Source: Candidatus Pacearchaeota archaeon (lineage in GTDB: Archaea > Nanobdellota > Nanobdellia > Pacearchaeales > GW2011-AR1). From it: 64,000 nucleotides of DNA. The notes below the pieces were generated by a model that worked only from the letters and a program-made list of their open reading frames with translations, was not told where the DNA came from and did not search any database. The stretch spans positions 2,838 through 66,837 of the forward strand of contig JACPLR010000007.1 of NCBI GenBank assembly GCA_016186425.1, given 5' to 3'. This document shows positions 8,323 to 46,897 of this stretch, in pieces; positions within the stretch are counted from its first letter, which is position 1; each line of letters starts with the position of its first letter. Position numbers and translations under genes: made by a program.

Positions 8323-8372
8323 AATAATAAAACTGATAATACCAAATCTATTAATTAATGCTTAACCTATTT

Positions 8373-8516
8373 AAATCATGCAAAATTTCTCCTATTAAAA
8401 GGAAAGTTTGATAAAGAAAACCATTGGTTGTCTTTATTATTTTCTATTGTATGAATTCAAAAATTTCTTGAATCAATGCCACATCTTTCCCTAATTTTTA
8501 CATCTTAAGTTACTGG
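8373..8516 (+). repeat. IGR-A element, full length with one nested B module
   Basis: AAATTTCTCCTATTAAAAGGAAAGTTT, then the B hairpin ATAAAGAAAACC-att-GGTTGTCTTTAT, then GAATTCAAAAATTTCTTGAATCAATGCCACATCTTTCCCTAATTTTTACATCTTAAGTTACTGG. Confidence 0.9.
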
Positions 8517-8541: not shown

Positions 8542-9273
8542 CTATTTTCCCTCTTCCATCATAATATACTTCTCAACTTCAAGAATCTCGGCAAGTTCCT
8601 TAGCGAGTATTGCATAGTATTTACTGGGTTTCTCAATAACTCCCCATTCCTTCTTATAAGGCTGGTCTCCAACTTCTAAGTCATAATATTGCATTCCATC
8701 CTCAATTGCTTTTTCTATATCTTTCTTAAGTAGAAAAGTTGGTGTCGAAAGTGATTTATATTTTCTATTCCACCAGCAACCCATATAAAAAATAGTCTCT
8801 TTTTTTTCATTCTTCATTGCTATATGGACTGCAATTAACTCTCCATTAAGATACGCGCTTATTGTATAACACCTCTCCTTCCACAATTTAATTCTTCTTT
8901 GCAGGTCTTTCTTATCTTCTTTCCAAAGCTCTAAAAACCATTTCTTGCTTTTATCAAGAGCATCTTTTTCATTATATACTAATTTTATTTCAGCATTCTT
9001 TTTTTCAACCCTTCTCAAATCTTTTCTTAAATCATTGTCTAAATGCAATTTATCAAAGCTATCTGGGAGCTTTATTATATTTGTAAGCTGGTCTTCTTCT
9101 TTTGATTCAAAACCAATTTTACAATCTGGATGAATTTCCCATAAGAAAAATGGTTTAGGTAAATTCTTAATATCTTTCTCATCAAGCCAAGCATAAGGAA
9201 AATATGCAATATCTTTCCAAGTCCAATAAAAAAGTTTTTTATTTTTATCAATTATGATTTTTTCAAATTCCAT
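8542..9273 (-). CDS. putative GNAT/FemAB-like acetyltransferase
   Basis: 243 aa. The C-terminal part (FYMGCWWNRKYKSLSTPTFLL...YYDLEVGDQPYKKEWG) resembles the BioF2/CelD-like acetyltransferase family. Weak call. Confidence 0.35.
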   Translation of the reverse strand: MEFEKIIIDKNKKLFYWTWKDIAYFPYAWLDEKDIKNLPKPFFLWEIHPDCKIGFESKEEDQLTNIIKLPDSFDKLHLDNDLRKDLRRVEKKNAEIKLVYNEKDALDKSKKWFLELWKEDKKDLQRRIKLWKERCYTISAYLNGELIAVHIAMKNEKKETIFYMGCWWNRKYKSLSTPTFLLKKDIEKAIEDGMQYYDLEVGDQPYKKEWGVIEKPSKYYAILAKELAEILEVEKYIMMEEGK

Positions 9274-11499: not shown

Positions 11500-11590
11500 A
11501 TAAAAATTAGTAAATTTAGGCTTAAATATATTATGAATATTAAAATTAAGGAATATCCAGATTATTAATTCAAATCAAATTTAAAAAAGA

Positions 11591-11703
11591 CTAATAAATT
11601 GTGCTAAATTTTTCACATAGAAAAATTTTATATTGTAATGATTCAGAAATTGTTTTGAAATCATGCCATATCCTTGCCTGATTTTAATGAGTAAACTAAC
11701 GAT
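11591..11703 (+). repeat. IGR-A element, full length
   Basis: CTAATAAAT...AAATTTTTC-acata-GAAAAATTT...GTAATGATTCAGAAATTGTTTTGAAATCATGCCATATCCTTGCCTGATTTTAATGAGTAA. Confidence 0.95.
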
Positions 11704-11744
11704 ATTTTATTAAACAATTAAACTTGCATAATTCATTGTATAAG

Positions 11745-15652: not shown

Positions 15653-16015
15653 ATGGCTGTAAATGAAAAATTAGAGAAGGTTGTTTTAGAAGCAATGGTA
15701 GATTTCTTAAATGAGCGTGATCCTTCATTTAACTCAATGTGTGATGGTGAAAAAGAACTTGGATTATCTTTACTTACTGAATTTTCAATGGCTAAAACAA
15801 TGGTGGATGAAATATCTAAAGTAAGGATACATGTTAATAATATTATTATATATGGCTATGATTTTAATCAAGAGCATGATGAAGAACCGGCTAAAGAAGT
15901 ATATGAAAGAGCTGTAAAAAATACCAAAGAATTTAGCGGACATCCTAACATGGAATCTTTTGTTTCATCGGGAATTGTTAAAAATAGATTTGGATGGTAT
16001 ATTACTCATATATAA
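15653..16015 (+). CDS. hypothetical protein (120 aa)
   Basis: Clean ORF with no family recognised. Confidence 0.45.
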   Translation: MAVNEKLEKVVLEAMVDFLNERDPSFNSMCDGEKELGLSLLTEFSMAKTMVDEISKVRIHVNNIIIYGYDFNQEHDEEPAKEVYERAVKNTKEFSGHPNMESFVSSGIVKNRFGWYITHI

Positions 16016-16133
16016 ATCAGGTTAAATTTTTCAATTGAAAAATTTATTATTGTAATGATTCAGAAATTGTTTTGAAATCATGCCATATCCTTGCCTGATT
16101 TTAATGAGTAAGTTTCAAATTTTTATTAATTAT
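16016..16133 (+). repeat. IGR-A element, full length, extended-tail subtype
   Basis: Hairpin AAATTTTTC-aatt-GAAAAATTT at 16024-16045. The core is identical to the 11591 copy. The tail GAGTAAGTTTCAAATTTTTATTAATTAT is shared only with the 20958 copy. Confidence 0.95.
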
Positions 16134-16162
16134 CCTGTAGATATTCCTTTTTTAAAGCAATC

Positions 16163-19100
16163 TTAAACCCTCTGAATATATCCTGATTTTGGAACAAAAA
16201 TATCTCCAGACATCCTAAGCTTTTCAATTGCCTCATCTAATTCAGCCTTATTTATTTTATTTTCAAGTTCTTTTTCAAGTTCTTCCATAGGAATTAATTT
16301 TCCCATTTTTGATTCTAACTTAATAATTGCATCTCTAACCTCAATAAACTTGCCTCTCTTGCTTGTCGTTACTCCAGTAACTATTTTATCAATGTCAAAA
16401 GTCTTTGTCTCATAATCATAACCTGCCTGCATTAAATAAAATTTCATCAGATTAATTGCCCTCAAAGAATCTTCTTTTTCAACAATAGGAGATAAGCGAG
16501 TTTTAGCAGAAGCCTCGCTTAACCTTACTAAAGCTTCTAATTGCCTTGCAGTAATTGGAATTGGCTTTAACGGAGAATCCGACGCTGTTGGTGCGTTTCT
16601 CAAGCTCACATAAAAATTCTTTATTTCTGCAACAGCTTCATCAGAAAGTTTAGGTATTATTTTTTGTTTTGCATAAGCAACATATTTTCTAAATAACTCT
16701 GGTTCTATACTCCCTCTTAAGATAGTATTTTGTTGTTCAAATAAAACATGAGACGCAATTGCTTCATCTCTCGCTTTTTCTGGCAAATCCCTTAACATAA
16801 AAATAACATCAAACCTGTTTAATAAAGTTGGCTGAATATCAATTTGCTGTGCAATTGCCTGATACGGATCAAATCTTCCAAATTTTGGATTCCCCGCAGC
16901 AAGAACACTTGTCTCAGCTCTCAAACTCGCCTGCACATTTGCCTTGCTTATTGTTACAGAATTATGCAAAACCATATTATTGGAAATAAAAGAATGATTT
17001 GGTTCAATAGTCACGTCATAAACCCATTTTATATCTTTATTCTTGATAATTTCAACAGATTTTATTTTAGACCATCTTATTTTGCCTTTCGAAACTATTG
17101 GGAAGGGATCTCCTTTTTTAGTTTTGATTGCCGAATTAGTAGTAATCTTTTTATTTTTTTTAGTCCAGCAAGGATGTTCTGGAGTAACAATAACCTCACG
17201 TCCATTATTTAAATTAATCTTAACAAATTTATTCGAGGCAATATGCCTGCTAACTTTATCAATTTTAACTGGATAAATAGATTCAAAATCGGTTGTTAAA
17301 ATTTTTAATCCATTATTTAAAGGTAATATCTCGCAATTTATTCCATTAATTACATTATTTTTATCCTTTTCAATTAAATTGTCAACAAATTCCCCTATTT
17401 TTATTTTAGAGCCATCTGCAAAACTTAAATTAAAATTAGGCAAATAACATTGCTGTTCCATTGCCTCATGCATTGCGCTTCTATCCTGCTCATCCATTTT
17501 TTCAATTTCATCAATGCAAACAATTCCTTTGTTGCTTAATACCATCGCCCCGGCTTCTAAACTCCATCCTTTTAAAAATTCATCTCTGACAACAGTTGCT
17601 GTTAACCCTGCACCACTTGCCCCTCTGCCCACAACGTAACGCCCCTTAGGGGCAATTTTAGAAACAAACTTTAGGGTTATAGAATTATGTACTCCTATAC
17701 CATTTGCTACAAATGTATTTGTGCCTGGAATAAATAAATCATAAACTTCTTCCTGGGTTTCAACCTCTTCAATCTTATCAATTTTAGACCATACTATTGG
17801 GCTATAAGCAATTTTTTTTAAAATATCAAAATCAGGCATTTTCTCTTTTGTTTTTTTCTGAAACATCTGAAGAATTTTCCTTAACCTTAACCTACCTATC
17901 TCCCCTCTTTTCTCAACAGTCCTCATTTCTGCAGCAAAGGTTCTATTTCCATCAATTCTTCGGTTATATCCAAGTTTCTTGGTTAAATCATAAACCAACT
18001 CTCCAACAGGAAGAAGATTATAATAACTGTACATAGGTTTATTATAAGATAAATATTCTCTTCCATAAAAATTAAAGCTATCCCTAAATTTTTGTATCAT
18101 TTGAGTCGGAACAGAAAGGGAATAATATTCTGTTTTCTTCCCTTTATATGTATAAACTCTTGAAATAATCCTGTTTAAAATTCCTATTGAGAATAATAAA
18201 TCAGAAGTTCCATGTGCAAGATCTTTTGATACTGTAATAAGTTCAAATCCTTTAATTCTTTCATCGTCTTTAATAAATCTCCCGTCTCCAGAGAAAATTC
18301 CAGAGATTAATCCTTTAATGAAATCTCTAGGGGCAAAATAAGCAAAATCCGGAATTTTCTTAATTCGTGAATAGTTTCCTTTTACTTTGCTTTCTCGTTT
18401 TTTATCAAGATTATAACAGTAATATTTTAATAAATTAGAAAGGCTTTTTGATGAAATTAAAATTCCGTCTTTAGTATTCTTATCAACATTAAGCCCAATT
18501 TCATCTGCAAAATTAATTAATTTTTGCTTAAATTTCTTATTTTTATTTGAAATATTAACAGTTTTATCAGATCTTATATATCCTTCACTTAAAAAAGCTC
18601 CTATAAAAAAACCAAATTGCTCATTTAAGAGTATTTCGCTCGGCAACTGCTTTGAGTTAGTTAAATAAGTATTAAATTTATCAGTTTTTAGTTTTTTAAC
18701 AGATTCATGGTGAAAATTAATAGGTAATGGCAAATAAGTGTTTTTATCTAAGTCGCTTCCTTTTATTGGAACTATTTCTCCTTCTTTAGATAAAGTGATA
18801 AAAGAATGATCTAAAGTAGCTATTACACTTTTCCCGTGTTCGGTTGTTACCTTTATAAGTTTTTTTTCAGGAGAGTGTTTTATTATTTGTTCAACTTTCT
18901 TCCATTTTGGAGCATGATTATTCATGTCAATGGTCAAAGTTTTTAAGCTATGCGGATATTTTCCAAATTTATTAAATAAACTTTCAATAGTATCATATCC
19001 ATATTCTTTATTGTTAAAATACAAGACTTTCTCATTCTTGCCCAAACTTTTGGCCACGCCTGGATCCCCCACTAAAAGTATATGTATGTCTCCTCTTGTA

Positions 19101-20035
19101 ACAGTTCCATCAACTTTTTGTTTTTTTATTCCCCCAAATAACTGAAGAACAAGTGACTGCTTAACTTCTTCATATCCATAAATGCTTGGAGCGATATTTT
19201 CAGTGAGCTTCCGGAAAATATTTTCATCCATTGACAATTCCTTAATTTGCATCTCATCTTCTTCAGAAATCTTTAATTCTTCATAGCTTTCTTCCAGTGG
19301 AATAACATTATTTGCATCAATAGCCAAATCAAATCTTGTTGAAACAGACCCTGTTTGCAAAGGGACAGGAACTTCACTTAATATTCCAATTACTCTTACT
19401 TTGCTTCCCGGAGTTGTTCGCTCTTCCATTTTTGGGTCAACTAAATCTTCCTTCAAAAAAACATTAAGTCTTCTCGGCTGTTCTCCTCCAATCAAACTTT
19501 CAGGACTTTCTTCAATTACAAGTCTTTGAGCATCAACCATTTGCTTGCTTATCAGTTTAAAAAAACCTTTTCTTCCGCAGGAACATCTGCTTGGCTCCTT
19601 AAATTTTTTCTCTAATTGCAGAACAGAAATAATAGTTCCGCAGGAAGGACATTCAAACCTTGCGCTGACAACCTGGGGCCTCACATCACTCGCCTGCCTG
19701 ACAATTCCCTCTATCCAGAGCATTTTATTCAAGTGCTTTGCCCTTATATTCCTTATTTTAACAAAGTTATCATCAGGCAAATCAAGCAGCCTTATCCTGG
19801 GATTTTTAAGAATGCCTATTTCCTGAAGCGAAACTTCTAGATTATTAAGAATCTCTTCAGGCTTGTCAAGCAGCATTTCCGCAATCACATGTGAAAAAGA
19901 AGCCAAATCATTAAAACTCATAAAAACTATATTTTCTCCAGACCTAGCTGCTTCTCCTATCTGTTTCTTATAAAAATTAAAAAAACCCTTTGCCTCTGCA
20001 ACAAATTCTTCTTGTTTAAGTTTATCCATTTTCAC
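16163..20035 (-). CDS. mcm: MCM replicative helicase precursor containing two inteins (672-aa mature extein)
   Basis: N-terminal Zn motif CPSCG...CSCG. Walker A GDPGVAK|S is split by intein 1. Walker B IVCIDEIEKM. HEAMEQQ| is split by intein 2. Arginine-finger region LNRFDVIFML. GAGGTGA RBS 5 nt upstream of the ATG. Confidence 0.95.
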   Translation of the reverse strand: MKMDKLKQEEFVAEAKGFFNFYKKQIGEAARSGENIVFMSFNDLASFSHVIAEMLLDKPEEILNNLEVSLQEIGILKNPRIRLLDLPDDNFVKIRNIRAKHLNKMLWIEGIVRQASDVRPQVVSARFECPSCGTIISVLQLEKKFKEPSRCSCGRKGFFKLISKQMVDAQRLVIEESPESLIGGEQPRRLNVFLKEDLVDPKMEERTTPGSKVRVIGILSEVPVPLQTGSVSTRFDLAIDANNVIPLEESYEELKISEEDEMQIKELSMDENIFRKLTENIAPSIYGYEEVKQSLVLQLFGGIKKQKVDGTVTRGDIHILLVGDPGVAKSLGKNEKVLYFNNKEYGYDTIESLFNKFGKYPHSLKTLTIDMNNHAPKWKKVEQIIKHSPEKKLIKVTTEHGKSVIATLDHSFITLSKEGEIVPIKGSDLDKNTYLPLPINFHHESVKKLKTDKFNTYLTNSKQLPSEILLNEQFGFFIGAFLSEGYIRSDKTVNISNKNKKFKQKLINFADEIGLNVDKNTKDGILISSKSLSNLLKYYCYNLDKKRESKVKGNYSRIKKIPDFAYFAPRDFIKGLISGIFSGDGRFIKDDERIKGFELITVSKDLAHGTSDLLFSIGILNRIISRVYTYKGKKTEYYSLSVPTQMIQKFRDSFNFYGREYLSYNKPMYSYYNLLPVGELVYDLTKKLGYNRRIDGNRTFAAEMRTVEKRGEIGRLRLRKILQMFQKKTKEKMPDFDILKKIAYSPIVWSKIDKIEEVETQEEVYDLFIPGTNTFVANGIGVHNSITLKFVSKIAPKGRYVVGRGASGAGLTATVVRDEFLKGWSLEAGAMVLSNKGIVCIDEIEKMDEQDRSAMHEAMEQQCYLPNFNLSFADGSKIKIGEFVDNLIEKDKNNVINGINCEILPLNNGLKILTTDFESIYPVKIDKVSRHIASNKFVKINLNNGREVIVTPEHPCWTKKNKKITTNSAIKTKKGDPFPIVSKGKIRWSKIKSVEIIKNKDIKWVYDVTIEPNHSFISNNMVLHNSVTISKANVQASLRAETSVLAAGNPKFGRFDPYQAIAQQIDIQPTLLNRFDVIFMLRDLPEKARDEAIASHVLFEQQNTILRGSIEPELFRKYVAYAKQKIIPKLSDEAVAEIKNFYVSLRNAPTASDSPLKPIPITARQLEALVRLSEASAKTRLSPIVEKEDSLRAINLMKFYLMQAGYDYETKTFDIDKIVTGVTTSKRGKFIEVRDAIIKLESKMGKLIPMEELEKELENKINKAELDEAIEKLRMSGDIFVPKSGYIQRV
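16961..17449 (-). mobile_element. MCM intein 2 (163-aa mini-intein, no endonuclease domain)
   Basis: Residues 863-1025. It starts CYLPNF... after HEAMEQQ and ends ...NNMVLHN followed by +1 Ser (SVTISKANVQASL restores the MCM consensus). Block B is VTPEHP. Confidence 0.85.
17684..19048 (-). mobile_element. MCM intein 1 (455 aa) with LAGLIDADG homing endonuclease domain, inserted in the P-loop
   Basis: Residues 330-784 of the ORF. It starts with Ser after GDPGVAK and ends ...GIGVHN followed by +1 Ser (SITLKFVSKIAP restores the MCM consensus). Block B is TLDHSF. The two LAGLIDADG motifs are FFIGAFLSEGYI and LISGIFSGDGRF. Confidence 0.85.
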
Positions 20036-20209: not shown

Positions 20210-20677
20210 ATGAAAGAGAATATGAGAAATAAACCGCTTTGTTATGCATGTAAAAAACCTATATCATTAAAAACTGATTTAACTATTGGTAGCATATATC
20301 CAAGATTTCCTATATATAGAATGTTCCATTCAAAACATTATGATAATTTTATGCTAAAAGGAAAATGGCATAAGAATATTATAAAGACATGGAAACCTGC
20401 CAAATATTCTCCAAAACTTCTAAAAACATACGATAGAAAATTTAACAGACAAATTGGATTTACTTATATGAATTTTTTCCATAAATTAGGAATTTTCAAA
20501 CTAAATTCTATAAATCATTGGATAATGTCTTTAATATATGCTGGATTAGTTTATGTATTACTCTTCCCAATATCAAATTTAGGAAGAATATGGCTTTATA
20601 TGTTAGGAACTCTTATCATAATCGGTTTTATATATGAAATAATTGTACTTATATATTTTTATCAGAAATATTTCTAA
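20210..20677 (+). CDS. hypothetical membrane protein (155 aa)
   Basis: Basic N-terminal half with a CYAC motif and two C-terminal hydrophobic segments. Its 3' end runs into a repeat copy. Confidence 0.4.
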   Translation: MKENMRNKPLCYACKKPISLKTDLTIGSIYPRFPIYRMFHSKHYDNFMLKGKWHKNIIKTWKPAKYSPKLLKTYDRKFNRQIGFTYMNFFHKLGIFKLNSINHWIMSLIYAGLVYVLLFPISNLGRIWLYMLGTLIIIGFIYEIIVLIYFYQKYF

Positions 20678-20826
20678 TAAAAAGAAAACTCATAAAGAAA
20701 AACATTGGCTATTAAAAGGAAGCGCCATAAGAGAAACCTTGGTGTCTTTTATTATTTTATATTATATAATTCAAAATAATTATGAAATACCGCAATATTT
20801 TTACTTGGTTTATCAATTAAATCTAT
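20666..20826 (+). repeat. IGR-A element with two nested B modules, diverged
   Basis: Collinear with the 57212 copy: ATATTTCTAATAAAAAGAAAACTCATAAAGAAAAACATTGGCTATTAAAAGGAAGCGCCATAAGAGAAACCTTGGTGTCTTTTATTATTTT...AATTCAAAATAATTATGAAATACCGCAATATTTTTACTTGG. Confidence 0.75.
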
Positions 20827-20957
20827 TTAGTTTAAAATTTTTAATTATTATATATCAATAACTGTTCAGTTTGTTACAATTTCAAAATATCAAGATAATA
20901 TTAAAATCAACGAACTCTGAGTTGATTGAATAAACAAATTAAGAAGTATAATTAAAT

Positions 20958-21074
20958 TATTTTAAATTTCTCGCAAGTAGAAATTTAGTATTGTAATGAT
21001 TTAAGAATATTTCTGAAATCATGCCATATCCTTGCCTAATTTTAATGAGTAAGTTTCAAATTTTTATTAATCAT
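20958..21074 (+). repeat. IGR-A element, full length, extended-tail subtype
   Basis: Hairpin AAATTTCT-cgcaag-(T)AGAAATTT at 20964-20986. CTGAAATCATGCCATATCCTTGCCTAATTTTAATGAGTAAGTTTCAAATTTTTATTAATCAT. Confidence 0.95.
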
Positions 21075-21124
21075 CATGTAGAGATTAGAATGTTCTATAA
21101 GTTAATACCACAACAAGTTAATTC

Positions 21125-21670
21125 TTATTTCTCACTCAATGCCTGCTTGATATTCTTGTTTAAAATAACCATGCTTTCATCAAGCTGCTGTTTGTTTTTC
21201 GTGCCTGTGCACACTAATTTTCCGTTGCTGAATAATAAAAAAGTAGCATTCGGCTCAATTAGCTTGTATACCAGGCCAGGAAACTGTTCTGGTTCGTATT
21301 CAGTATTCTGCAATGCCAAAGCAAGATAATTTAAGTTTAGTTTTAAATCAATGCTTCCGCTTGCAACAATGTTTTGGACAGTTATCTTGGGCTTGTCAGT
21401 AATTTTAACATTAATCTTTCTTAGTTGTTTAATTACTTGGTTGATTACTTCTTTAACCTGTGATATTGATTTTGTTCCAGTGCATACTAAATTTCCTGAA
21501 GAAAAGACAAGAACAGCAGATTTTGGCTTTTTGATCCTTAGTACCAAGCCAGGAAACTGCTCTGGATTATATTCTGTATTTGTCTGAGTTCTTGCTAACT
21601 TGGTTAAACTAACTGGTTTTCCTAAAGAAGCAGTAGCAACAATATTCTGCACAGACAAATTACCTTTCAT
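21125..21670 (-). CDS. tbp: TATA-box binding protein
   Basis: Two direct repeats: QNIVATASL...EQFPGLVLRI...SGNLVCTGTKS and QNIVASGSI...EQFPGLVYKL...NGKLVCTGTKN. Confidence 0.95.
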   Translation of the reverse strand: MKGNLSVQNIVATASLGKPVSLTKLARTQTNTEYNPEQFPGLVLRIKKPKSAVLVFSSGNLVCTGTKSISQVKEVINQVIKQLRKINVKITDKPKITVQNIVASGSIDLKLNLNYLALALQNTEYEPEQFPGLVYKLIEPNATFLLFSNGKLVCTGTKNKQQLDESMVILNKNIKQALSEK

Positions 21671-22938: not shown

Positions 22939-25900
22939 TTAACCTCCTGCTGCTTGAATACATTGATTTCTTGAGTCTGAATTAAATGGATGTTGTATAA
23001 AGCATGAGATTGCAGCCCATATGCTTTTTAATAATCCTGTTTGTTCTTTAAATGCGCCACAAACTCCTTCTATACAAACATTGCTCTCACACTCATAATC
23101 ATTTAAGCAAGAAGCAGTAGAATTCCCCGCTTTTTTATATACAAGTGTCGCAGGATCACAATACCATACTTTATTATCATTTGATTTTACTCTGGTTTTT
23201 CCAGGCACTTCGCTTGAAATTCCATTACCAGTATTAGCTAAACATTTATTTCTTCCAGGAGGGCCTTCACAATTTGCGCTGCATTGTCCGTCTTCACAAC
23301 GAGTCTGCCCTTCTGGACATGCTTCTATTTTTACAAATGTTCTCCCATCAGAAGATTCATAAGCATCATCTCCATACCATAATACTACCTTATTATTAAT
23401 TTTCTCAACATATCCAACACTAGGCACTCCAGAAGGCAAACCGCTTAATTCTCCAATAACATTTATATAATTGCCTCCAGAACTTGAATTTGATTTATAT
23501 AATCCAATACTCATAGGTGCAGTTGCTGAAGAACCCGATGTTGCAGGGCTATTAATTGTTCCTACAATCAAATACCATAAATAAACAGCATCATCGCCAG
23601 TTAAATTAGAGTAATAACCTAAGTTTGGAATCTTATTTGTTGGAAGTCCTCCTTGATTAAACAGAACATTTGCAAAAGTTCCGTTTCCGTATCCAACATA
23701 TCTATCACTTCCATTCCATAAAACTATTCTTCCCCCATGTCCTTCTAATGGATGCCAATAAGCATCTGTAGGAATAAAATCTCCAGGTAATTTTCCTCCC
23801 TCTCCACTGCCTCCTCCTGTACTAGATGAAAGTCTTTGCATTTTCCCGGTAGTATTCCTGAAATATATTTCCCTGTTTGCATTCCATAATAAAATACTAT
23901 CATTTCCAGGAAATCCTTGATAATATCCTATAACAGGTTTAAAGTCTGCTGGCAAACCTTCTGCAACCTTAGTTGTAAATTGTGTAAACCTTCCTGTGTT
24001 TCCTCTATAAATAAATGCAGCTCCACTCTCATTCCATAAAACAATTGCTCCTCCGCCATACGGATGCCAATATCCAAATTTAGGTATGAATCCTGCCGGC
24101 AATCCAGGATAAGCTCTTACTCCTTCAATATCTCCGCCACCACCGCCAGTGCCTCCAGCACCACTTTGGCAAAATCCAGTAGCAGCATTACAAAAACTTT
24201 CTGTAGGACAATCTTGTCTTTCTGTTGCAGGAGCGCAAGGAACTCCAGGAAGGGTATTTGTTTGAGCAGTGCAAGCAGCATTAGTGCCACTGCCTGCTGT
24301 TAAAGTTATATATTTTACAATTGGAGAAACAGTTCCAGAATTAAAACTACATGCAGAACCATTCCAGATTTTATAACCTGTAACATCTTTTACAAGAATA
24401 TATATTTCTTTATTAGAAGGGACAGCTAAAGAAACTCCTGCTTCAGAATAACCTGCCATAATCTCATTAACCCTGCTGCTTATAATTAATTGATTAGTTG
24501 TTTTATCATAAACTTCAACTGTTCCTGATTTATCCACTGCAGAAGCGGGTATAAAAAAATGAACACTAAGAGTAGTAGTCCCTGCTACAACGACTCTTTC
24601 AACAGCTGTAAAAGTTGCTCCGTCAGTTGATTCATAAGCATCAGCTCCATACCATAAAACAATTTTCTTTCTTATATTATCAAAATAACCTGCAGTTAAC
24701 ACTTGATTTGTTGGCAAACCAGTAGGAGAAATAAGATTAAACTTGTTCTCTGACTGGCTCCAATTATAAAGTTTCAGCTGCCCATTAATTTCATACCATA
24801 ACTGAACCCCTTTCTGTGCAGTAGAAAATTCGTAATAATAACTGACTTTTGGAGTTCCTGTTCCTGGCAAATTATAATTTACAGGATTAATTTGTGAAAA
24901 AACACTATCGCTAGCTGCAATATACCATTTTGTTGCATCAAATAAAGAAACTCTTCCGCCGGTAGTTCCCAAATTATGCCAGTAACCTGTCTTAGGAACA
25001 AAGTCGTAAGGCAATTCTCCCGGCTTTGTATCTGCTGCATTGCCAATTCTATCAGAAATTTTAGTATATTTTCCTATTACATAACTCCAAAGATACATAA
25101 CCCTATTACTATCACTTAATATTATTGTTTCTTTTCCAGAAAATCCTTGATACCATCCATAGGTTGGCTTGTAATCTCGTGGCAAACCAACAATATCTTT
25201 TCCTCCAGCTCCAGCATCATTCCATAAAGCAAAATTAACTCCATTAGTTGAATAGTAAACTCTCCCATTTGCATCCCATAATACAAGAACCCCTTTATTT
25301 GTTGCAGGAGCTGAAGGATTTCTATGCCAATATCCAAACCTTGGAGTAAACCCTGCAGGCAAACCAGTATACTCTCCAGAAGTTGCTGGGCATGATTGTA
25401 TCTCACTTGGCTTATTAGTTATAACTCCGCAATTATTGGAATCTGTGCATGTTCTTGTTTTAACTCCATTTACACAATTTACATTATCCCATGATGCAGG
25501 ATTGCAAGTCCAGGACGGAGTGCAAGTAACCGAACCCGGACAAGGATCAAATTCACAATTCAAAGCAGGATTTCTTCCAACAGAACTTCCATCAGGACAA
25601 ATTTTAGCTTCCTTTGTACAAGCAGAAGTACATTGAGTTGTTCCAGTTCCTGTTTCTAATGTTATTGTTTTTGTAACAACGCCTCCACTTACAGTAAGAG
25701 TAAAAGGACAATTTATACCATTAAAATCTTTATAGCCATTAACATCTTTAATATAAATATAAATAGGAATATCAAGAATATTTGCGCTAGAAGATGAAGG
25801 AAATGAAGCTGAAAAAGCACCGGCAACTTGTAACCCCAACCTAACATTATTATTAGAATCTAAAACTTGATTATCAGACGCTCTTCTTATTTCTATTGTA

Positions 25901-26088
25901 GCAATATTATCTGCAGAACCCTGAGCATTTGCAACAACATCCAATCTTGGAGGAGAACTCAACTGCGGCTTACCTTTAAAAGAATCAATAAAATCAGTAA
26001 ACCAATTTGCAGAAACAAAACTCATCGCCAAAAGAATAAAAATGACTAATATTGATACTAAAATAAATGCGCTCACACCCTTTTTCAT
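22939..26088 (-). CDS. giant secreted Cys-rich repeat protein (1049 aa), paralog of 28146..30989
   Basis: Signal/TM then SFVSANWFTDFID. Two internal copies of [Ig-like beta domain - Cys-rich knot - five GLPxxFxPxxGYWH...LW units]. C-terminal CLNDYECESNVCIEGVC plus a helix. Confidence 0.8.
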   Translation of the reverse strand: MKKGVSAFILVSILVIFILLAMSFVSANWFTDFIDSFKGKPQLSSPPRLDVVANAQGSADNIATIEIRRASDNQVLDSNNNVRLGLQVAGAFSASFPSSSSANILDIPIYIYIKDVNGYKDFNGINCPFTLTVSGGVVTKTITLETGTGTTQCTSACTKEAKICPDGSSVGRNPALNCEFDPCPGSVTCTPSWTCNPASWDNVNCVNGVKTRTCTDSNNCGVITNKPSEIQSCPATSGEYTGLPAGFTPRFGYWHRNPSAPATNKGVLVLWDANGRVYYSTNGVNFALWNDAGAGGKDIVGLPRDYKPTYGWYQGFSGKETIILSDSNRVMYLWSYVIGKYTKISDRIGNAADTKPGELPYDFVPKTGYWHNLGTTGGRVSLFDATKWYIAASDSVFSQINPVNYNLPGTGTPKVSYYYEFSTAQKGVQLWYEINGQLKLYNWSQSENKFNLISPTGLPTNQVLTAGYFDNIRKKIVLWYGADAYESTDGATFTAVERVVVAGTTTLSVHFFIPASAVDKSGTVEVYDKTTNQLIISSRVNEIMAGYSEAGVSLAVPSNKEIYILVKDVTGYKIWNGSACSFNSGTVSPIVKYITLTAGSGTNAACTAQTNTLPGVPCAPATERQDCPTESFCNAATGFCQSGAGGTGGGGGDIEGVRAYPGLPAGFIPKFGYWHPYGGGAIVLWNESGAAFIYRGNTGRFTQFTTKVAEGLPADFKPVIGYYQGFPGNDSILLWNANREIYFRNTTGKMQRLSSSTGGGSGEGGKLPGDFIPTDAYWHPLEGHGGRIVLWNGSDRYVGYGNGTFANVLFNQGGLPTNKIPNLGYYSNLTGDDAVYLWYLIVGTINSPATSGSSATAPMSIGLYKSNSSSGGNYINVIGELSGLPSGVPSVGYVEKINNKVVLWYGDDAYESSDGRTFVKIEACPEGQTRCEDGQCSANCEGPPGRNKCLANTGNGISSEVPGKTRVKSNDNKVWYCDPATLVYKKAGNSTASCLNDYECESNVCIEGVCGAFKEQTGLLKSIWAAISCFIQHPFNSDSRNQCIQAAGG

Positions 26089-28145: not shown

Positions 28146-30989
28146 TTATCCTAAAAAATTATTTATGCATTGCTCACGTTGTTCTTGACTAATTGGATGT
28201 GCAATTAAACAAAGGAGAGATATTGCGTACCTCTGAAATGCATTGACTTTATTAATTTCCTCTTTTATAGGCAAACACTCTCCAGATGAACAGAAATTGC
28301 TCTCACATTCATAATTATTCTGGCATTTTGCAACGCTTCCATCATAATCTTTTATTTTTTGCTCATTTATATTTCCATCATAATTACAATAAGAGTTTAT
28401 ATCTCTAAGGAAAGTCATATCAACATAATTTTCTTCACTATTTAAAGCAAGAAAATTGATCCCATCAATTCTCACAGGTATTTCTAAACCTTCAGAATCT
28501 GGATTAACAATTGTTATTCTATCACCTAAGAATAGATTATAAGTTATATTCTTTTCTTTTCCAATCAAAGTGAACCTTGCTTCATTATCTGAAAGAACAT
28601 CTAATATAAAATCGTCAACATTATTTATTTCATATAATCTATTTTTATCTGATTCTTCATAAATAAATCTAGTTCCATAAGGAATGCAAACATTGTCGCT
28701 GAATTTATAATCAGCCCACCTAGGAACTAAACATCCGGCGCAAATTCCAGGGCTGCAATAAGATTCACGAGTTACATCTGGGCTATTACAATCAGAATTA
28801 TCAATACATGTTGTTGTTTGTCTTCCGTGAGGCGGACAAATAATAGGCTCTGTCTTGCACTGGTAATAAGGTTCGCATGTTTCCAAACTAATTTCAGAAG
28901 AACATTGGGAAAGGCTAACTTCAATTTGACGGGACAAAGGATAAGGTATCTCAAAATCCTCCCAGTTAACAGAGTTAGCATCATTATTTTGCAAGGCATT
29001 GATAAAATCATTTAACTTATACTGTGAAAGCTTAAGCAATTCTTCATCAGAAAGTTTTTTTCCACTGCTTACATATACCACAACTGCAATATTATCTTTA
29101 ATCCATATTACCTCTCGCGTTTTATAATTATATTGGTCAAGATCCTGATTTCCATAAAATACATCCCAATTGCAGATGTAAACTTTATTTTCTTTATTAT
29201 CTGAACTCCAGTAAGTTCGTGGTTGACATATTCTTCCAGATATAGTAGAATCAATCCAAGAACTTAAATTCAAATCTTGATTATCAAAAACATTAAGATT
29301 ATAGTCAATATTATAATTCACATTATCATAATAAGTATGCCAAGAAGCATAATAATGAGTTGTAGGATAATCTTTTCCATTAATCCAAACACTGCTTCTT
29401 TCACTTGAATTCCACCCAAGGTTATATACTATATTATAATCAAAGAAACTAGCTGGCTGAGCTACTTTTTTAATCAGGTCAGGACAAACATTTGATGGCT
29501 CAATAATAATAATAGGACAGTAAAAAGTCATTACATCACTTCCTGTTGTTTGCGGAAAATTCAAAGTTACTTTTATTGCATCCATATTAAATGAAGGACC
29601 ACTATAAGTTAAGCCATATTCCATTCCACCAATTGAAATTGTTGTTAAACCTTCTATTGAGGTAGAAGCTGTTGTGTAAACTTCATTTGTAAGCACGTCT
29701 TTTAATTCGACTTTATCTCCCTCTCCCTGAGGATATGAACTATTTATAACAGTTTGAACTCTTAATAAATAACCAGGAATAACAACATAATTTCCTTTAT
29801 AAAATACCTCGCCTTCTTTTACTACCACAATCTTGCCTTGAGATTGTAAATTAGTTATATTTATTCTTATTTCATTATTTAAATAACCACAGCCATCAAC
29901 TTCTGTTAAGCCTCCAACAATACAATCACCATTACTACAACCATTAGGACAAAGATTACAACCTGCTCCTCCTGAATTTGCAATGCACTGCCCATTTTGA
30001 CATATATAAGTAGTAGTTGAAGTACAAGAAGAGTCTCCAGAACAATAATTCCTAGAAGTTGACGGACAATCACTATCACTAGAACATTGAGAAGTTGATA
30101 TTCCAACATTTACTTTATAGTAAATTCTTCCATCACCTGACTCGTAAACTTTATCATTAAACCATAGGATAACTTTCTTTCTTATCTTATCAAAATAAGC
30201 AATATTCGGAGTATTTGGGATTATTGTGCCATCAGACAATCTTGGCCTTACAGCCCCGCTAAATTTACCAGTAGAAGAATCATATCTATAATAACCTTGA
30301 GAGGACCATAAGTTAGTTGACTCAACCTCTCCTATAACATAATTAACAACTGCCAAAGGCAAATTTGGCATTTCTAATAAACTGCTCTGTGAAAATTTTA
30401 AATCACTTCCAGCACTATATTCTTTATAAGTTCCACTTGTCTGGCCCCAAAAGATTATTTTCCCGCCATTAAATTTATGGAAAATGCCTTTTTGTAAAAC
30501 AAAATCGCTAGGCAATCCAACAGCCACCATCATTTCATTTGTAAATGGTTCAAACTTTTTTGTATTCGGATTATAAACATAAACCATGCCATTACCATCT
30601 GATAAAATTATCCTTCCATTACCATCTCCAAAAGCATGATAAAAACCAACTCTTGGCTTGAAATCAGAAGGCAAACCAGAAGCAACTTTTTCTGCATCAC
30701 TCCACTTAACAAATTTCAAACCATCACTTGAAAAATAAGCCTGTCCATTTACATCCCATAAAATTATTTTTCCAACAGAACCAGCTGGAAAGGGATGCCA
30801 ATAACCAACAACTGGCTGAAAACCATCAGGCAACCCTTCAAATATTGTTGTCCCAGGGCTTAAAGAAACTTCTTTTCCACTTAGTTTATCAAAAAAATCA
30901 GTAAACCAATTTGCAGAAACAAAACTTAACGAAATAATAATCATTAAGAACACTATCGAAAATAAAAATAAATTCACCCTCTTTTCCAT
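28146..30989 (-). CDS. giant secreted Cys-rich repeat protein (947 aa), paralog of 22939..26088
   Basis: Signal/TM then SFVSANWFTDFFD. One five-unit GLPxxFxPxxG(Y/F)(W/Y)H...LW block (aa 51-293), Cys-rich regions, and C-terminal CQNNYECESNFCSSGEC plus a helix. Confidence 0.8.
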   Translation of the reverse strand: MEKRVNLFLFSIVFLMIIISLSFVSANWFTDFFDKLSGKEVSLSPGTTIFEGLPDGFQPVVGYWHPFPAGSVGKIILWDVNGQAYFSSDGLKFVKWSDAEKVASGLPSDFKPRVGFYHAFGDGNGRIILSDGNGMVYVYNPNTKKFEPFTNEMMVAVGLPSDFVLQKGIFHKFNGGKIIFWGQTSGTYKEYSAGSDLKFSQSSLLEMPNLPLAVVNYVIGEVESTNLWSSQGYYRYDSSTGKFSGAVRPRLSDGTIIPNTPNIAYFDKIRKKVILWFNDKVYESGDGRIYYKVNVGISTSQCSSDSDCPSTSRNYCSGDSSCTSTTTYICQNGQCIANSGGAGCNLCPNGCSNGDCIVGGLTEVDGCGYLNNEIRINITNLQSQGKIVVVKEGEVFYKGNYVVIPGYLLRVQTVINSSYPQGEGDKVELKDVLTNEVYTTASTSIEGLTTISIGGMEYGLTYSGPSFNMDAIKVTLNFPQTTGSDVMTFYCPIIIIEPSNVCPDLIKKVAQPASFFDYNIVYNLGWNSSERSSVWINGKDYPTTHYYASWHTYYDNVNYNIDYNLNVFDNQDLNLSSWIDSTISGRICQPRTYWSSDNKENKVYICNWDVFYGNQDLDQYNYKTREVIWIKDNIAVVVYVSSGKKLSDEELLKLSQYKLNDFINALQNNDANSVNWEDFEIPYPLSRQIEVSLSQCSSEISLETCEPYYQCKTEPIICPPHGRQTTTCIDNSDCNSPDVTRESYCSPGICAGCLVPRWADYKFSDNVCIPYGTRFIYEESDKNRLYEINNVDDFILDVLSDNEARFTLIGKEKNITYNLFLGDRITIVNPDSEGLEIPVRIDGINFLALNSEENYVDMTFLRDINSYCNYDGNINEQKIKDYDGSVAKCQNNYECESNFCSSGECLPIKEEINKVNAFQRYAISLLCLIAHPISQEQREQCINNFLG

Positions 30990-31150: not shown

Positions 31151-31260
31151 CCTAATAAGCCATGCAAAATTTTTCTAAATGAAAAATTTTATATTACACA
31201 TTTTCAAAAATGTTCTTGAAATATTACAACAATTCTTCCTACTTTATTAGCTAGAACTTC
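31151..31260 (+). repeat. IGR-A element, full length with diverged tail
   Basis: CCTAATAAGCCATGCAAAATTTTTC-taaat-GAAAAATTTTATATTACACATTTTCAAAAATGTTCTTGAAATATTACAACAATTCTTCCTAC. Confidence 0.85.
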
Positions 31261-31284
31261 TAATCTTAAAATTATCAATGATTA

Positions 31285-31418
31285 ATTTTTAAAATCATTG
31301 GCTATTAAAAGGAGATGTCATAAGAAGAACCTTGGCGTTTAAAAGGAGATGTCATAAGAAGAACCTTGGCGTTTAAAAGGAGAGTTCATAAAGAGAACCT
31401 TGGTTCTTTTTATTATTT
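31285..31418 (+). repeat. B-module tandem array (partial unit + 3 x 34 bp + closing T-rich tail)
   Basis: Units start at 31305, 31339 and 31373 with an exact 34-bp period: TTAAAAGGAGATGTCATAAGAAGAACCTTGGCGT twice, then TTAAAAGGAGAGTTCATAAAGAGAACCTTGGTTC, then TTTTTATTATTT reaching the rpl15e stop. Confidence 0.9.
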
Positions 31419-31932
31419 ATCTCAGCCCTCTCGACTTTCTTCCGGCAGAAGTCAACCCTCTGAAAACTCTGTGCCTGTTTTCAGGCCTGCAGATCCAGTT
31501 TATTGTTCTGTCATGTTTTATTTCTGGTTTTTCAGGATCAACTAAAATAACTTCAAAGAAATAATGCTCGCCATCTTTTCCAATCAAATATGAATTCAAA
31601 ACTTCAAGATTCTTGAATTTTCTTGCAGCTCTCTGCTCTGCAATCCACTGATAATTCATTGAAAGAGATTTTCTTACAGCCAGGCTTGCTCCTGATTTTC
31701 TTGCTTTGCTAGGCCTTGGCCTTCTATGCCCCCCTCTTTTCAAGTAAACTCTAGCAACAATAAAACCTTTTTTTGCTTTGTATCCAAGTTTCCTTGCCCT
31801 GTCTAACCTTAAAGGTTTTTCAACTTTAACAATAACATTCCCTCTTCTCCATTCAGTCATCCTGTCTCTAAGAGTTTTCTTTTCAGGGCTTTTCCATGCT
31901 TCTCCGATATAATGATACATTCCTTTTGCCAT
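31417..31932 (-). CDS. rpl15e: 50S ribosomal protein L15e
   Basis: MYHYIGEAWKSPEK...RLDRARKLGYKAKKGFIVARVYLKRGG...NSYLIGKDGEHYFFEVILVDP is canonical L15e. Confidence 0.9.
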   Translation of the reverse strand: MAKGMYHYIGEAWKSPEKKTLRDRMTEWRRGNVIVKVEKPLRLDRARKLGYKAKKGFIVARVYLKRGGHRRPRPSKARKSGASLAVRKSLSMNYQWIAEQRAARKFKNLEVLNSYLIGKDGEHYFFEVILVDPEKPEIKHDRTINWICRPENRHRVFRGLTSAGRKSRGLR

Positions 31933-36245: not shown

Positions 36246-36322
36246 CTATTAAAAGGAAAGTTTGATAAAGAAAACCATTGGTTCGCTTAAAAGGAAAGTT
36301 CATGAATTAAACAAACCATCAC
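36246..36322 (+). repeat. B-module, two free-standing tandem units
   Basis: CTATTAAAAGGAAAGTTTGATAAAGAAAACCATTGGTTCGC then TTAAAAGGAAAGTTCATGAATTAAACAAACCATCAC. Confidence 0.8.
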
Positions 36323-36342
36323 TTTAAATTAACAATCTTAAA

Positions 36343-36445
36343 TTAGGATTAAATTTTCTAAATGAAAATTTATTTATTGCTTATTTCCAAAATATTCTTG
36401 AATCTCACAATATTTTTACCTTATTTTTACATCTTAAGTTATTGG
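36343..36445 (+). repeat. IGR-A element, full length
   Basis: Hairpin AAATTTTC-taaat-GAAAATTT at 36351-36371. ATATTCTTGAATCTCACAATATTTTTACCTTATTTTTACATCTTAAGTTATTGG. Confidence 0.85.
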
Positions 36446-36478
36446 TTTTAATCGTTTTTATAAATTACATATTCCAGA

Positions 36479-36780: not shown

Positions 36781-36934
36781 TGCGCCAGCCGGGAATTGAA
36801 CCCGGCTCTAAACCTTTTTCCACTGGTTGCAGGATTCTTTGAATTCATACAACGTGAATGGTTGCAGGATTCATAAAAACCCGCTGGTGGTTTTTATTTG
36901 GGAAGGTTTTATTCTGCCGATAAACTACAAGCGC
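36781..36934 (-). tRNA. tRNA-Gly(CCC) with 83-nt anticodon-loop intron
   Basis: Minus-strand read: GCGCTTG-TA-GTTT-ATCGGCA-GAAT-A-AAACC-TTCCCA[83 nt]A-GGTTT-AGAG-CCGGG-TTCAATT-CCCGG-CTGGCGC-A. The anticodon stem is a perfect 5 bp. There is one U:U mismatch in the acceptor stem (6:67). No encoded CCA. Confidence 0.7.
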
Positions 36935-41092: not shown

Positions 41093-41195
41093 AAATGCAT
41101 TGTTATATTTTCAAAACAATTTTCTAAACATACAATATTAAATTTTCCTAGGTGAAAAATTTATGGCTGATTTATATAAATAACCTGCTAATTAT
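41093..41195 (+). repeat. IGR-A element, rearranged (hairpin-2-like part precedes hairpin 1)
   Basis: AATGCATTGTTATATTTTCAAAACAATTTTC... followed by AAATTTTC-ctaggt-GAAAAATTT at 41140-41162. Confidence 0.5.
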
Positions 41196-44104: not shown

Positions 44105-44172
44105 AATTAGGCATAAATTTTCCTCTTAAAAGGAAAGTTTGATAAAGAAAACCATTGGTTGTCTTTATTTTC
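44105..44172 (+). repeat. IGR-A element, 5' part with one B module
   Basis: AATTAGGCATAAATTTTCCTCTTAAAAGGAAAGTTTGATAAAGAAAACCATTGGTTGTCTTTATTTT. The B part is near-identical to the 8393 copy. Confidence 0.85.
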
Positions 44173-44209: not shown

Positions 44210-45058
44210 ATGGGAAAAATACACATAACCATAACCTCAGTAACAATTGTTCTCCAAATAGTAATGATCGCTTCACTTGTATATTTAGTCATAAACATGA
44301 TTGAAATAAAAAATAGCATTGAGTTGACAATAAATAAAACAAAAACAGACTTGGAAAAGCAGATAACAGATAATCAAGTAACAAATCAGCAGCAGATTCA
44401 GGAAGTAACAACTAATTTAATGTCAACAAAAGCAAGCCTCTCAAATCAGATAAGCGAGATAAAAGCAGACACAAGCTCTGATTTTTCAGGAGTTATACAG
44501 GATGTAATTAAAGGAGTTGTAAGTGTTGGAACAGACATTTCTCAGGGATCAGGATTTATAATCAGCAATGAAGGCTATGTTATAACAAATGCTCATGTTC
44601 TTTCAGGAGGGAGATATGCAAGAGTTCTAACTTATGAAAGCGATTCATGGCGTCCAGCTCAGTTAATCGGCTATGACAATGACATGGATATTGCAATATT
44701 AAAAATACAGGGAAATTATGATTCTCTGGAATTTGATAATTCAGATGAAGTTCAAGTAGGAGAAAAAGCAATAGCTCTAGGAAATCCATTAGGATTGTCA
44801 TTCTCTGTTTCAGAAGGAATAATTAGCGCAGTAAACAGGCTTGGCCCAAATAACCAGCCAATTTACTTTCAGATAGATGTTCCATTAAATAGGGGAAATT
44901 CAGGCGGCCCTTTAGTAAATAAAAGAGGAAAAGTTATCGGAGTAAATAATTTCAAGCTTCAAAATGCTGAAAATCTTGGATTTGCATTGGAATCAAATTA
45001 TGCAAAAGAAGCCATAAATAAGATATTTGCTGAGCAGAATTTAAGCATTTCAATTTAG
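44210..45058 (+). CDS. membrane-anchored trypsin-like serine protease (HtrA/S1C-like, no PDZ)
   Basis: Catalytic triad contexts VITNAHV, DMDIAILKI and GNSGGPLVN. N-terminal TM segment. Start chosen at ATG 44210; the tracked start 44159 lies inside a repeat copy. Confidence 0.75.
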   Translation: MGKIHITITSVTIVLQIVMIASLVYLVINMIEIKNSIELTINKTKTDLEKQITDNQVTNQQQIQEVTTNLMSTKASLSNQISEIKADTSSDFSGVIQDVIKGVVSVGTDISQGSGFIISNEGYVITNAHVLSGGRYARVLTYESDSWRPAQLIGYDNDMDIAILKIQGNYDSLEFDNSDEVQVGEKAIALGNPLGLSFSVSEGIISAVNRLGPNNQPIYFQIDVPLNRGNSGGPLVNKRGKVIGVNNFKLQNAENLGFALESNYAKEAINKIFAEQNLSISI

Positions 45059-46524: not shown

Positions 46525-46547
46525 ATATTGAAATAAATAAATGCTTA

Positions 46548-46658
46548 ATAAATTATGTTAAATTTTTCACAGAAGAAAAATTTAGTGTTATATCATTTTC
46601 AAAATTATTCTGAAATCATGCCATCCCCTTGCCTCATTTTAATGTGTAAGCTGCTAAT
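46548..46658 (+). repeat. IGR-A element, full length
   Basis: Hairpin AAATTTTTC-acagaa-GAAAAATTT at 46560-46583. TTCTGAAATCATGCCATCCCCTTGCCTCATTTTAATGTGTAAGCTGCTAAT. Confidence 0.95.
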
Positions 46659-46897
46659 ATTTTATCAATAACCATTCAATACTTTAATATTATATAGGTT
46701 ATATGCTAAGGTTTAAAACAATAGAAGACCTTAATGATATAAGATTAAATATTAAAGATTTACAAAGAAAGGTATTCAAAAATGGCAATAAAAAGTGATC
46801 CTGTTGACATGATATTTGATATAATTAAAATAGCGATAATTGTAATTATAGGTTATATAATTATTAAAGCATTATTGTCTGTAATTTAATGTCTAAA

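Follow-up and report, generated by a model that had tools for sequence, protein, structure and literature searches.

The closest described counterparts of the element considered here are found among archaeal core promoters and among small intergenic repeats of bacteria. The element, referred to as B, is a 34-base repeat unit (~41 nt for the full cassette with its terminal hairpin) that occurs in a 64,000-nucleotide stretch of contig JACPLR010000007.1 of a Candidatus Pacearchaeota archaeon; this whole stretch is called the window, and collected loci are given L-numbers. We tentatively regard B as a gene-start cassette that derives from a promoter and carries a stem-loop under selection; it would have been amplified and tandemly expanded in this lineage. 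Among the archaeal core promoters with a B recognition element and a TATA box (BRE/TATA) that drive leaderless transcription, the nearest precedent is provided by the tRNA promoters of Nanoarchaeum equitans, which Randau, Schroeder and Soell reportedly described in 2008 as lying at a fixed distance. Like such promoters, B possesses an A/T-rich box in the register used genome-wide, and the purine-rich element next to it may correspond to a BRE. In contrast to them, it is conserved over ~41 nt and not ~14, its TATA region is base-paired to the start-site region, it exists in tandem and orphan copies, and its promoter activity is a prediction from sequence.

Another example is the BOX element of pneumococci, a bacterial repeat of the form boxA-boxB(n)-boxC, whose ~45-nt internal module varies in tandem copy number and which folds as a whole into stem-loops. 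B is also part of a modular intergenic mosaic, with the order A(5')-B(n)-A(3') at positions 8393 and 57237, where A stands for a second repeat of the window, IGR-A; however, the two share no sequence similarity, BOX does not act as a promoter aligned to gene starts, and B also stands alone at start codons in other genomes. The Correia elements of Neisseria and the REP/BIME (repetitive extragenic palindromic/bacterial interspersed mosaic element) sequences of Escherichia coli are small palindromic intergenic repeats that may serve as promoters, terminators or mRNA stabilisers and that vary between strains; Correia elements end in inverted repeats and duplicate a TA target, and REPs come with cognate RAYT transposases. 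B is likewise small, palindromic, intergenic and present or absent between relatives, but neither inverted-repeat ends with a target duplication nor a transposase was found for it in the copies and window open reading frames (ORFs) scanned, and it is conserved over many genomes of one archaeal class. Finally, in genes 38 and 25 of phage T4, split ribosome-binding sites are bridged by a hairpin. B also combines a Shine-Dalgarno (SD)-like AAGGAG, a stem-loop and an AUG, and its spacing after looping out matches the SD peak measured in these genomes. This likeness would apply only if B is transcribed from upstream, and it is irrelevant to tRNA-linked and orphan copies. We know of no archaeal precedent for a hairpin-bridged ribosome-binding site, and a full-text search of the literature found no element such as B described in DPANN archaea.

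B at gene starts

The promoter-like shape of B and the position of its 3' edge at gene starts elsewhere are absent from an earlier note on this DNA and are new here. The promoter rule was measured on a reference set of 576 B-less genes and 85 tRNAs from the loci of these genomes. At each of the positions -29 to -27 relative to the ATG, a TATA-like hexamer begins in 26-32% of genes (background ~3%), and about half of the 576 genes show this signal without any SD-like motif. In the genes lacking the -28 TATA, an SD-like 4-mer is present at -16 to -6 in 24% (7% in the control), with a peak at -13 to -8. Taken together, the position of the TATA with respect to the ATG and the confinement of SD-like motifs to TATA-less genes argue that leaderless mRNAs are the norm. 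In tRNA genes the consensus is AAAACTTATAAAT, with a peak that is sharper still and placed ~4 nt further upstream than the gene TATA.

B falls into this register. Its GGAAAG-TTTGATAAAG segment (with the variants GAAAAC-TCATAAAG and GAAAA-TTTATAAAG) resembles the tRNA-promoter consensus and, in copies whose stem is followed by an ATG, covers -37 to -21, and TTTSATAAAG occupies -31 to -21 from the ATG or the tRNA +1 in more than 20 loci, the start site being taken from the ATG. Some variants (L034, L041) have a perfect AAAATTTATAAAG. GGAAAG, GGAGAG or GAAAAC stands ahead of the box, like the local AAAAC consensus, and the BRE columns of the weight matrix hold little information. With this matrix, built from B-less genes only, B-preceded genes score best in B's own register (offset 0, -1 or -8), and the best register tracks the spacing to the ATG; the scores are ~5.5-7.6 bits, mostly 6.3-7.1, that is, around the 75th-84th percentile of real genes.

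The genomic context of the copies was recorded as the feature that follows the last stem base, with arrays oriented like B. Gene starts, counted when the ATG begins an ORF of 55 codons or more, follow 16 of the ~66 pattern-defined arrays, with the ATG at 0 or +1 in 14 cases and at +8 in two (L020, L033). The genes concerned include those for ribosomal protein S3, SMC, an RNase J-like protein, prefoldin beta and three DRG GTPases, and loci collected independently by means of the ribosomal protein L15e gene add two further cases (L122 at 0, L074 at +1). tRNA 5' ends follow the stem at 0 in L027, L035 and L093, and at +7 in L047. Several of the gene-start copies are located in divergent spacers of 35-51 nt plus B, which are so short that there is no other room for the promoter of the downstream gene. 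From the register match and these short spacers we conclude that a core promoter is contained in B or gave rise to it, with transcription predicted to begin at the 3' edge of B. The association is also old and conserved, since B is flush with the ATG in front of DRG GTPase orthologues that are 43-66% identical, in all three genomes. The gene-start context is found at 15/32 loci in low-copy genomes vs 3/27 in the expanded genome JAGVWP01, a Pacearchaeote from Rifle.

According to the reading favoured here, the 5' half of B (AAAAGG-RRR / TTTSATAAAG) would be a BRE/TATA-like segment taken from an archaeal core promoter, and the 3' half the inverted complement of the TATA-proximal bases, so that the last 26-27 nt form a 12-bp stem-loop whose final base is the predicted transcription start position. 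We infer that TBP and TFB bind the former and that initiation takes place at the 3' edge. One unit (34-36 bp) would approximately span the distance from one predicted start to the next, each TATA pointing to the start of the next unit, and in a tandem array only the last unit closes the stem. In many Pacearchaeota and Woesearchaeota the cassette stands immediately before housekeeping genes and tRNAs and would drive leaderless transcription; in the genome of the window and in JAGVWP01, B would have multiplied together with IGR-A into orphan positions, where copies may be active and may have expanded through slipped-strand or unequal-exchange duplication between TTGG repeats. The array at 31305 would be such an orphan, having arrived with ~3.3 kb of lineage-specific DNA between the L15e and DNA ligase genes.

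The stem-loop and the spread of B

Tandem Repeats Finder reports positions 31298-31403 of the window as a repeat of period 34 with 3.1 copies, 91% matches and a score of 170, and the exact 34-bp period of the three-unit array announced in the earlier note was recovered, with units at 31306, 31340 and 31374. A degenerate search pattern (TAAAAGGARRN{4,5}ATAARRRRAAMCN{0,1}TTGG) matches nine times, always on the + strand (8396, 20713, 31306, 31340, 31374, 36250, 44127, 57240 and 57276), and not once in 100 shuffles. By means of a profile hidden Markov model and a covariance model, six arrays were delimited in the window, all on the + strand; the covariance model with its filters off gives five hairpin-terminated copies, again on the + strand only. 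The other loci named in that note were all found, although two units are degenerate, namely the first of one array (20677-20710) and the second of another (36286-36322). Units follow each other head-to-tail and spacer-free, with a length or period of 34-36 bp across arrays. In the array beginning at 31303, units 1 and 2 are identical (34/34), and unit 3 agrees at 27/34 positions. Internal units finish in ...AACCTTGGCNNT, and the last unit alone runs on into GGTTNTNTTTAT, closing a 12-bp stem with its own ATAARRRRAACC. The proposal that the last unit of every array closes into a hairpin holds for five of the six arrays and fails for the one at 36249; of the hairpin positions given with it, 31388-31413 is exact, and the other two had to be shifted by one base, to 8411-8437 and 57290-57315. 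TTGG(C) precedes the first unit and TTGG ends every unit, and these direct repeats bracketing the units could supply the short repeats needed for slippage. The two-codon mini-ORF (ATGTCATAA), regarded from the beginning as probably coincidental, is present only in the GATGTCATAA variant and not in the commonest GTTTGATAAAG variant, and is indeed coincidental.

Covariation of the hairpin arms, which had been proposed from the window, is supported statistically by shuffle and slid-partner controls. In 20 distinct hairpins from many genomes, 7/12 pairs have changed on both sides (0/500 shuffles reach this), and 90.4% of cells are paired vs 83.1% in shuffles and 49-59% in slid controls. This set is composed of 14 pattern-derived hairpins and six divergent covariance-model copies from loci not selected for B; the added rows are structure-aware matches registered by hand, with the loop normalised and a bulged base removed in two, and they carry a bias toward structure. 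The 14 pattern-derived hairpins alone point the same way: three pairs have changed on both sides, and pairing is 89.9%, a level attained by 0/500 shuffles (shuffle value 85.9%, slid controls 49-60%). Across genomes, the arms are of four main types, in which an internal G-C pair occupies stem position 6, 7 or 8 and shifts along the stem on both arms in step; the spacer between the arms varies as well (TT, ATT, TTT, CTT, about half being TT and half NTT), and several arm types are present within one genome. A T5 run is found in GGTTCTTTTTAT-type arms and is lacking in the commonest GGTTGTCTTTAT type, and the reverse strand has T4 tracts. Folding of the 141-nt array region gives z = -1.65 (+ strand) and z = -0.68 (- strand).

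The pattern search covered one-genome-per-species archaeal and bacterial assemblies, plus viral contigs. It returned 60 loci outside the window, 59 of them in DPANN metagenome-assembled genomes (MAGs) from 25 genomes; the remaining match, in Oceanobacillus, has no hairpin and is most likely due to chance, and no copy of B was found in the viral contigs. The distribution is uneven, with 27 loci in JAGVWP01, six arrays in the 64 kb of the window and 1-3 loci in each of the other genomes. Arrays comprise one unit in 70 cases, two units in 12, three in four and four in four. The description of B as a discrete module of variable copy number with a covarying terminal hairpin is therefore borne out, and extended to these 25 other genomes.

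The ongoing expansion and contraction suggested in the earlier note is also supported, namely by identical adjacent units, by arrays of one to four units and by differing counts at an orthologous locus. Adjacent units are identical at 35/35 positions in L006 (two adjacent pairs), at 35/35 in L022 and at 34/34 in the window, and upstream units mostly score below the terminal one, which fits local duplication with selection on the last unit. In front of the DRG GTPase gene the three genomes have one unit, at least two (a scaffold gap interrupts the array) and three units. Presence and absence at orthologous sites is observed too. Among the other L15e loci, 0/80 have B after the stop codon, and the loci without it include relatives 96% and 93% identical; in the 96% relative (L061), L15e is followed by 43 nt holding a canonical promoter and then by the DNA ligase gene, and the excess of the window over L061 between these genes amounts to ~3.3 kb with a 947-aa ORF, an A copy and the three-unit array. 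Similarly, a B insert is present in L074 and missing from the orthologues L064 and L065, which share with it both promoter and gene. Arrays are located at assembly breaks in several cases (contig end in L022, locus end in L029, contig start in L049, N gap in L046), which indicates that they break short-read assemblies and that copy numbers in MAGs may be underestimates.

Other identities of the repeats were considered and rejected. A CRISPR array is ruled out by contiguous units of period 34-36 without unique spacers, a C/D-box small RNA reading of A and B by wrong box order and spacing (judged by eye), and origin recognition box (ORB) repeats near MCM by the scattering of the copies across 50 kb and many intergenic regions. 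A fixed upstream promoter for all B copies was also set aside, since only a loose AT-rich enrichment was seen, except in A-B composites.

Competing explanations

Several observations weigh against B being a promoter-derived cassette. The commonest variants have a G or a C within the TATA-like 8-mer (TTTGATAA, TGTCATAA), and a hairpin is not a general feature of promoters here, since just 0.2-0.4% of the B-less ones have at least 10/12 pairs at that place. In the window, no B array stands directly at a start codon (0/6), and in JAGVWP01 copies running antisense to both flanking genes outnumber sense copies 17 to 5 (p = 0.017), an excess that is odd for an active promoter. In L074 (TGTAAG/CGTACA) and L110 (GUGAG/CUCAU) the stem has been kept by compensatory change despite the loss of TATA-like bases, which argues that a promoter leaves a structural part of the function unaccounted for; both loci have a canonical TATA upstream of B (in L074, 29 nt before GGG), so that B would be transcribed there. 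In A-B composites, canonical TAATAAAT or CTATAAAT lies 31-34 nt before GG, which places the predicted start inside TAAAAGG and would have B transcribed from its first bases. Moreover, G.T wobbles (~18) exceed A.C mismatches (~3), which favours pairing on the B-sense strand. The compensated stems, the upstream TATA of L074 with its insert-free orthologues, the composites and the wobbles all agree with a different explanation, a serious rival though less probable in our judgement, in which B acts as transcribed RNA, either as a stem-loop leader at the 5' end or, in orphan copies, as a short non-coding RNA, made from a canonical promoter upstream. In such a leader, AAGGAG(G) could act as an SD brought near the AUG by the looped-out stem, or the stem could be a mark for 5'-end protection or processing; in fact, SD sites are used in these genomes, the AGGA of B would lie at an effective -12, and AAGGAGG is present in L002 and L093. 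However, upstream TATA-like motifs lack a fixed register with B (at most 9/84 flanks at any one position), and the starts derived by hand scatter over ~10 nt, often inside AAGGAG, whereas real promoters peak over three adjacent positions (-29 to -27). An SD is also irrelevant to the four tRNA cases, the two genes at +8 violate SD spacing but not promoter spacing, and the stem type seen most often folds weakly (-5.9 kcal/mol; sense strand, z = -0.8). A role of the stem-loop as an RNA processing or recognition signal, with a DPANN-specific nuclease or RNA-binding factor acting at the stem base, is improbable on the present evidence. It would account for a stem end flush with the tRNA +1 in three cases, though canonical tRNA promoters lie ~4 nt further upstream, and for a stem that is flush with AUGs and outlives the loss of TATA-like bases. 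A cut in transcripts started upstream would then make mature tRNA 5' ends and the 5' AUG of leaderless mRNAs, and B could spread as a portable "gene-start" module.

The presence or absence of B at orthologous sites (the window vs L061, L074 vs L064/L065) raises another question, that is, whether B is mainly a non-autonomous mobile or duplicative repeat, similar to miniature inverted-repeat transposable elements (MITE), REP or BOX. This is compatible with both the promoter and the leader explanations, and as the principal account we consider it unlikely; promoter-likeness would let B sit harmlessly at gene boundaries, and the hairpin would be recognised by a mobilising enzyme. The uneven copy number, the copies in tRNA introns (L024, L068, L131 and a tentative one in the window tRNA-Gly), the mosaics with A-type and C-type modules, the strand uniformity in the window and the assembly breaks at arrays all fit mobility. 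Nevertheless, neither terminal inverted repeats nor target-site duplications were visible at the ends of 80-plus copies or at the L074/L064 junction, the viral contigs have no copies, no transposase domain was detected among the 20 window ORFs scanned, and both the kept position before the DRG orthologues and the compensatory change in the stem speak of selection in place and not of decay. A further explanation is derived from the opposite strand, where B could be a terminator or 3'-end element of the converging gene (stop, hairpin and the T-rich tracts GGTTTTCTTTAT and CTTTCCTTTTA), the three-unit array after L15e being then a series of termination sites. A converging stop codon is indeed found at -4 to +3 of the stem end, often within the last stem bases, in at least 16 arrays, including that ending at 31413 next to L15e; in L017 the 3' end of a converging tRNA abuts the stem, the antisense excess in JAGVWP01 would follow, and folding of the reverse strand is no weaker than that of the sense strand (z = -2.8 to -3.1). 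Even so, we assign it a low probability, since hairpins flush with stops are no general gene-end feature (8.6% of B-less gene ends vs 9.0% in shuffles), T5 after B-less gene ends is no commoner than A5 (28% vs 34%), the wobble pairs point to the other strand, A and B keep their + orientation even between + strand genes of the window, and the start-flush copies beside divergent genes are left unexplained. Finally, the earlier note had suggested that the GAACC-TT-GGTTC centre could be a dimeric-protein site. As an operator, for example of the winged helix-turn-helix (wHTH) or AbrB proteins mentioned there, it would define a regulon. An inverted repeat between the TATA and the start site is at the classic position of archaeal repressors, and the genes downstream of B are mostly translation or housekeeping genes. 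The suggestion is nevertheless disfavoured, and appears to us very improbable: the arm spacing differs by 1 nt (2 or 3 nt), the G-C pair moves in step, the covariation at 7/12 arm positions and the coexistence of arm types in one genome indicate base pairing and not recognition by a single protein, and the constant part is limited to AACC/GGTT, partly imposed by the search pattern.

Surroundings of B and its biological meaning

The window (GC ~30%) contains genes for L15e, an intein-bearing MCM, an ATP-dependent DNA ligase, TBP and intron-containing tRNAs, and is archaeal by virtue of this gene set. The nearest public sequences are MAGs of Pacearchaeota, Woesearchaeota and Nanoarchaeota; the source is a DPANN archaeon of the Pacearchaeota/Woesearchaeota type. 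Searched with Rfam 15 at the gathering threshold, the window gives three tRNAs only, with no match for B or IGR-A, and ten other loci give tRNAs and one rRNA fragment, with A and B again unmatched. The coordinates are collected in the table.

Table. Features of the window around the B arrays (positions within the window)
Feature	Position	Strand	Remarks
IGR-A copy	31153-31276	+	Directly 5' of the three-unit array; hairpin 1 at ~31166-31190, then a variant of the conserved box
5' flank of array	31277-31302	+	Small hairpin AATGATT-N9-AATCATT, then TTGGC
B unit 1 (TATTAAAAGGAGATGTCATAAGAAGAACCTTGGCG)	31303-31338	+	Internal unit, no 3' arm
B unit 2	31339-31372	+	34/34 identical to unit 1
Terminal B unit	31373-31413	+	BRE/TATA-like AAAAGGAGAGTTCATAAAG, then hairpin; top covariance-model match in the window, 63.2 bits
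12-bp hairpin ATAAAGAGAACC-TT-GGTTCTTTTTAT	31388-31413	+	One G.T wobble; T5 run in 3' arm; then TATTATTT
Single B unit	8393-8437	+	Hairpin 8411-8437; preceded by canonical TATA (8366-8376) and hairpin-1 arm
Degenerate unit and hairpin-terminated unit	20677-20752	+	Begins at the stop codon of ORF 20210-20677 (+)
One good and one degenerate unit	36246-36322	+	No closing hairpin; A copy 36338-36450 comes next
Single hairpin-terminated unit	44122-44168	+	After a hairpin-1 arm; upstream of protease gene 44210-45058
Two units (GTTTCATAAAG type, then GATGTCATAAG type)	57237-57315	+	Close in hairpin 57290-57315
Divergent B-like hairpin ATAAAAACC-CGCTGG-TGGTTTTTAT	36866-36897	+	In tRNA-Gly intron, antisense to the tRNA; weak match, tentative
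L15e gene	31417-31932	-	Stop codon 3 nt past the B hairpin; converging-stop context
TBP ORF	21125-21670	-	Pfam TBP, E = 5e-57; just beyond the 20677-20752 array and an A copy
MCM helicase gene	16163-20035	-	Split by intein sequence with LAGLIDADG endonuclease domain; 1290 aa in total
Two large ORFs	28146-30989 (947 aa), 22939-26088 (1049 aa)	-	No Pfam match; internal repeats common to both

IGR-A, an intergenic repeat of ~150 nt, opens with a canonical BRE/TATA-like sequence and contains two hairpins, the conserved box ATGCCATATCCTTGCCTAATTTTAATGAGTAAG and a T-run. The window has 23 sites of it (for example 7009-7159, 11586-11719, 16003-16147, 20944-21094, 46537-46691, 54450-54584, 57280-57421 and 60360-60455), of which 22 are on the + strand regardless of gene strand (p = 6e-6), the - strand copy being at 41109-41175, and its 3' end adjoins stops of - strand genes. 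IGR-A could be transcribed as a small unit of its own or be a selfish repeat; as a promoter of its neighbours it was rejected, since by eye the genes at 44210 and 60542 have their own TATA at -28 (the protease gene has TAATAAAT at -29). The B arrays are equally uniform (6/6 on the + strand, p = 0.03, whatever the strands of the neighbouring genes). Such uniformity could reflect replication-linked insertion or selection; GC skew in the window follows gene strand and gives no reading on replication-linked orientation. B had been described as inserted between hairpins 1 and 2 of IGR-A at four loci. This is correct for 8393 and 57237 and partly so for 44127, where a hairpin-1 arm is present and the A body is lacking, but not for the rest: the array at 31305 comes after a complete A, that at 36246 comes before an A, and that at 20685 is free-standing. 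The A body after the 8393 array reaches the stop codon of the - strand gene 8542-9273, and the 57237 array is flanked by a canonical TATA and a hairpin-1 arm on one side and by an A body on the other. In many B copies of the window and of JAGVWP01, the 3' part of IGR-A comes next.

Copies of B are also found within tRNA genes. A reverse-complemented B occupies the canonical-position intron of tRNA-Ile(GAU) in L024 (3755-3882, intron of 54 nt), L068 (about 2260-2400) and, diverged, in L131 (about 1190-1330), where AAAGGAGATGTCATAA has been retained and the stem re-paired, which suggests a conserved arrangement and not a one-off insertion. A reading of B itself as a bulge-helix-bulge (BHB) intron was rejected, since in L024 the anticodon loop and the intron 3' end appear, by eye, to make up the splice motif, with B as internal cargo only. 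In the window, tRNA-Gly (36781-36934, - strand) has a long intron, the gene spanning 154 nt, and the intron also holds, in antisense, two TGGTTGCAGGATTC repeats and an A-like fragment. A "C-type" module as in this intron precedes the B arrays of L014, L017, L021 and L033 and lies inside the B stem in L104, L112, L117 and L120. In L019 (2727-2815), with the same arrangement in L031, B and the 5' end of the divergent tRNA-Leu(UAA) are 20 nt apart, and B is bracketed by GGTGCCG...CGGCACC and a partial copy of the tRNA 5' end, which could be an insertion scar or leader pairing. In L110, a sequence of ~31 nt, GAGGCAATTGAAAA(G/A)ATCGCCCC(G/A)CA(G/A)ATAC, is found beside B-like units near either end of the locus, at about 130-180 and 3400-3450, 3.3 kb apart.

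To our knowledge, almost nothing has been established experimentally about the transcription signals of Pacearchaeota and Woesearchaeota, none of which is in pure culture. For these genomes a measured promoter rule is now available (TATA at -28, mRNAs mostly leaderless), together with a ~41-nt cassette, present in ~25 genomes, that joins a promoter-like half to a selected stem-loop and is placed exactly at gene and tRNA boundaries. If active, B would be a portable gene-start element able to rewire expression in very small genomes, and a candidate promoter for genetics in these organisms; if its stem acts in RNA, it would point to an undescribed 5'-end mechanism.

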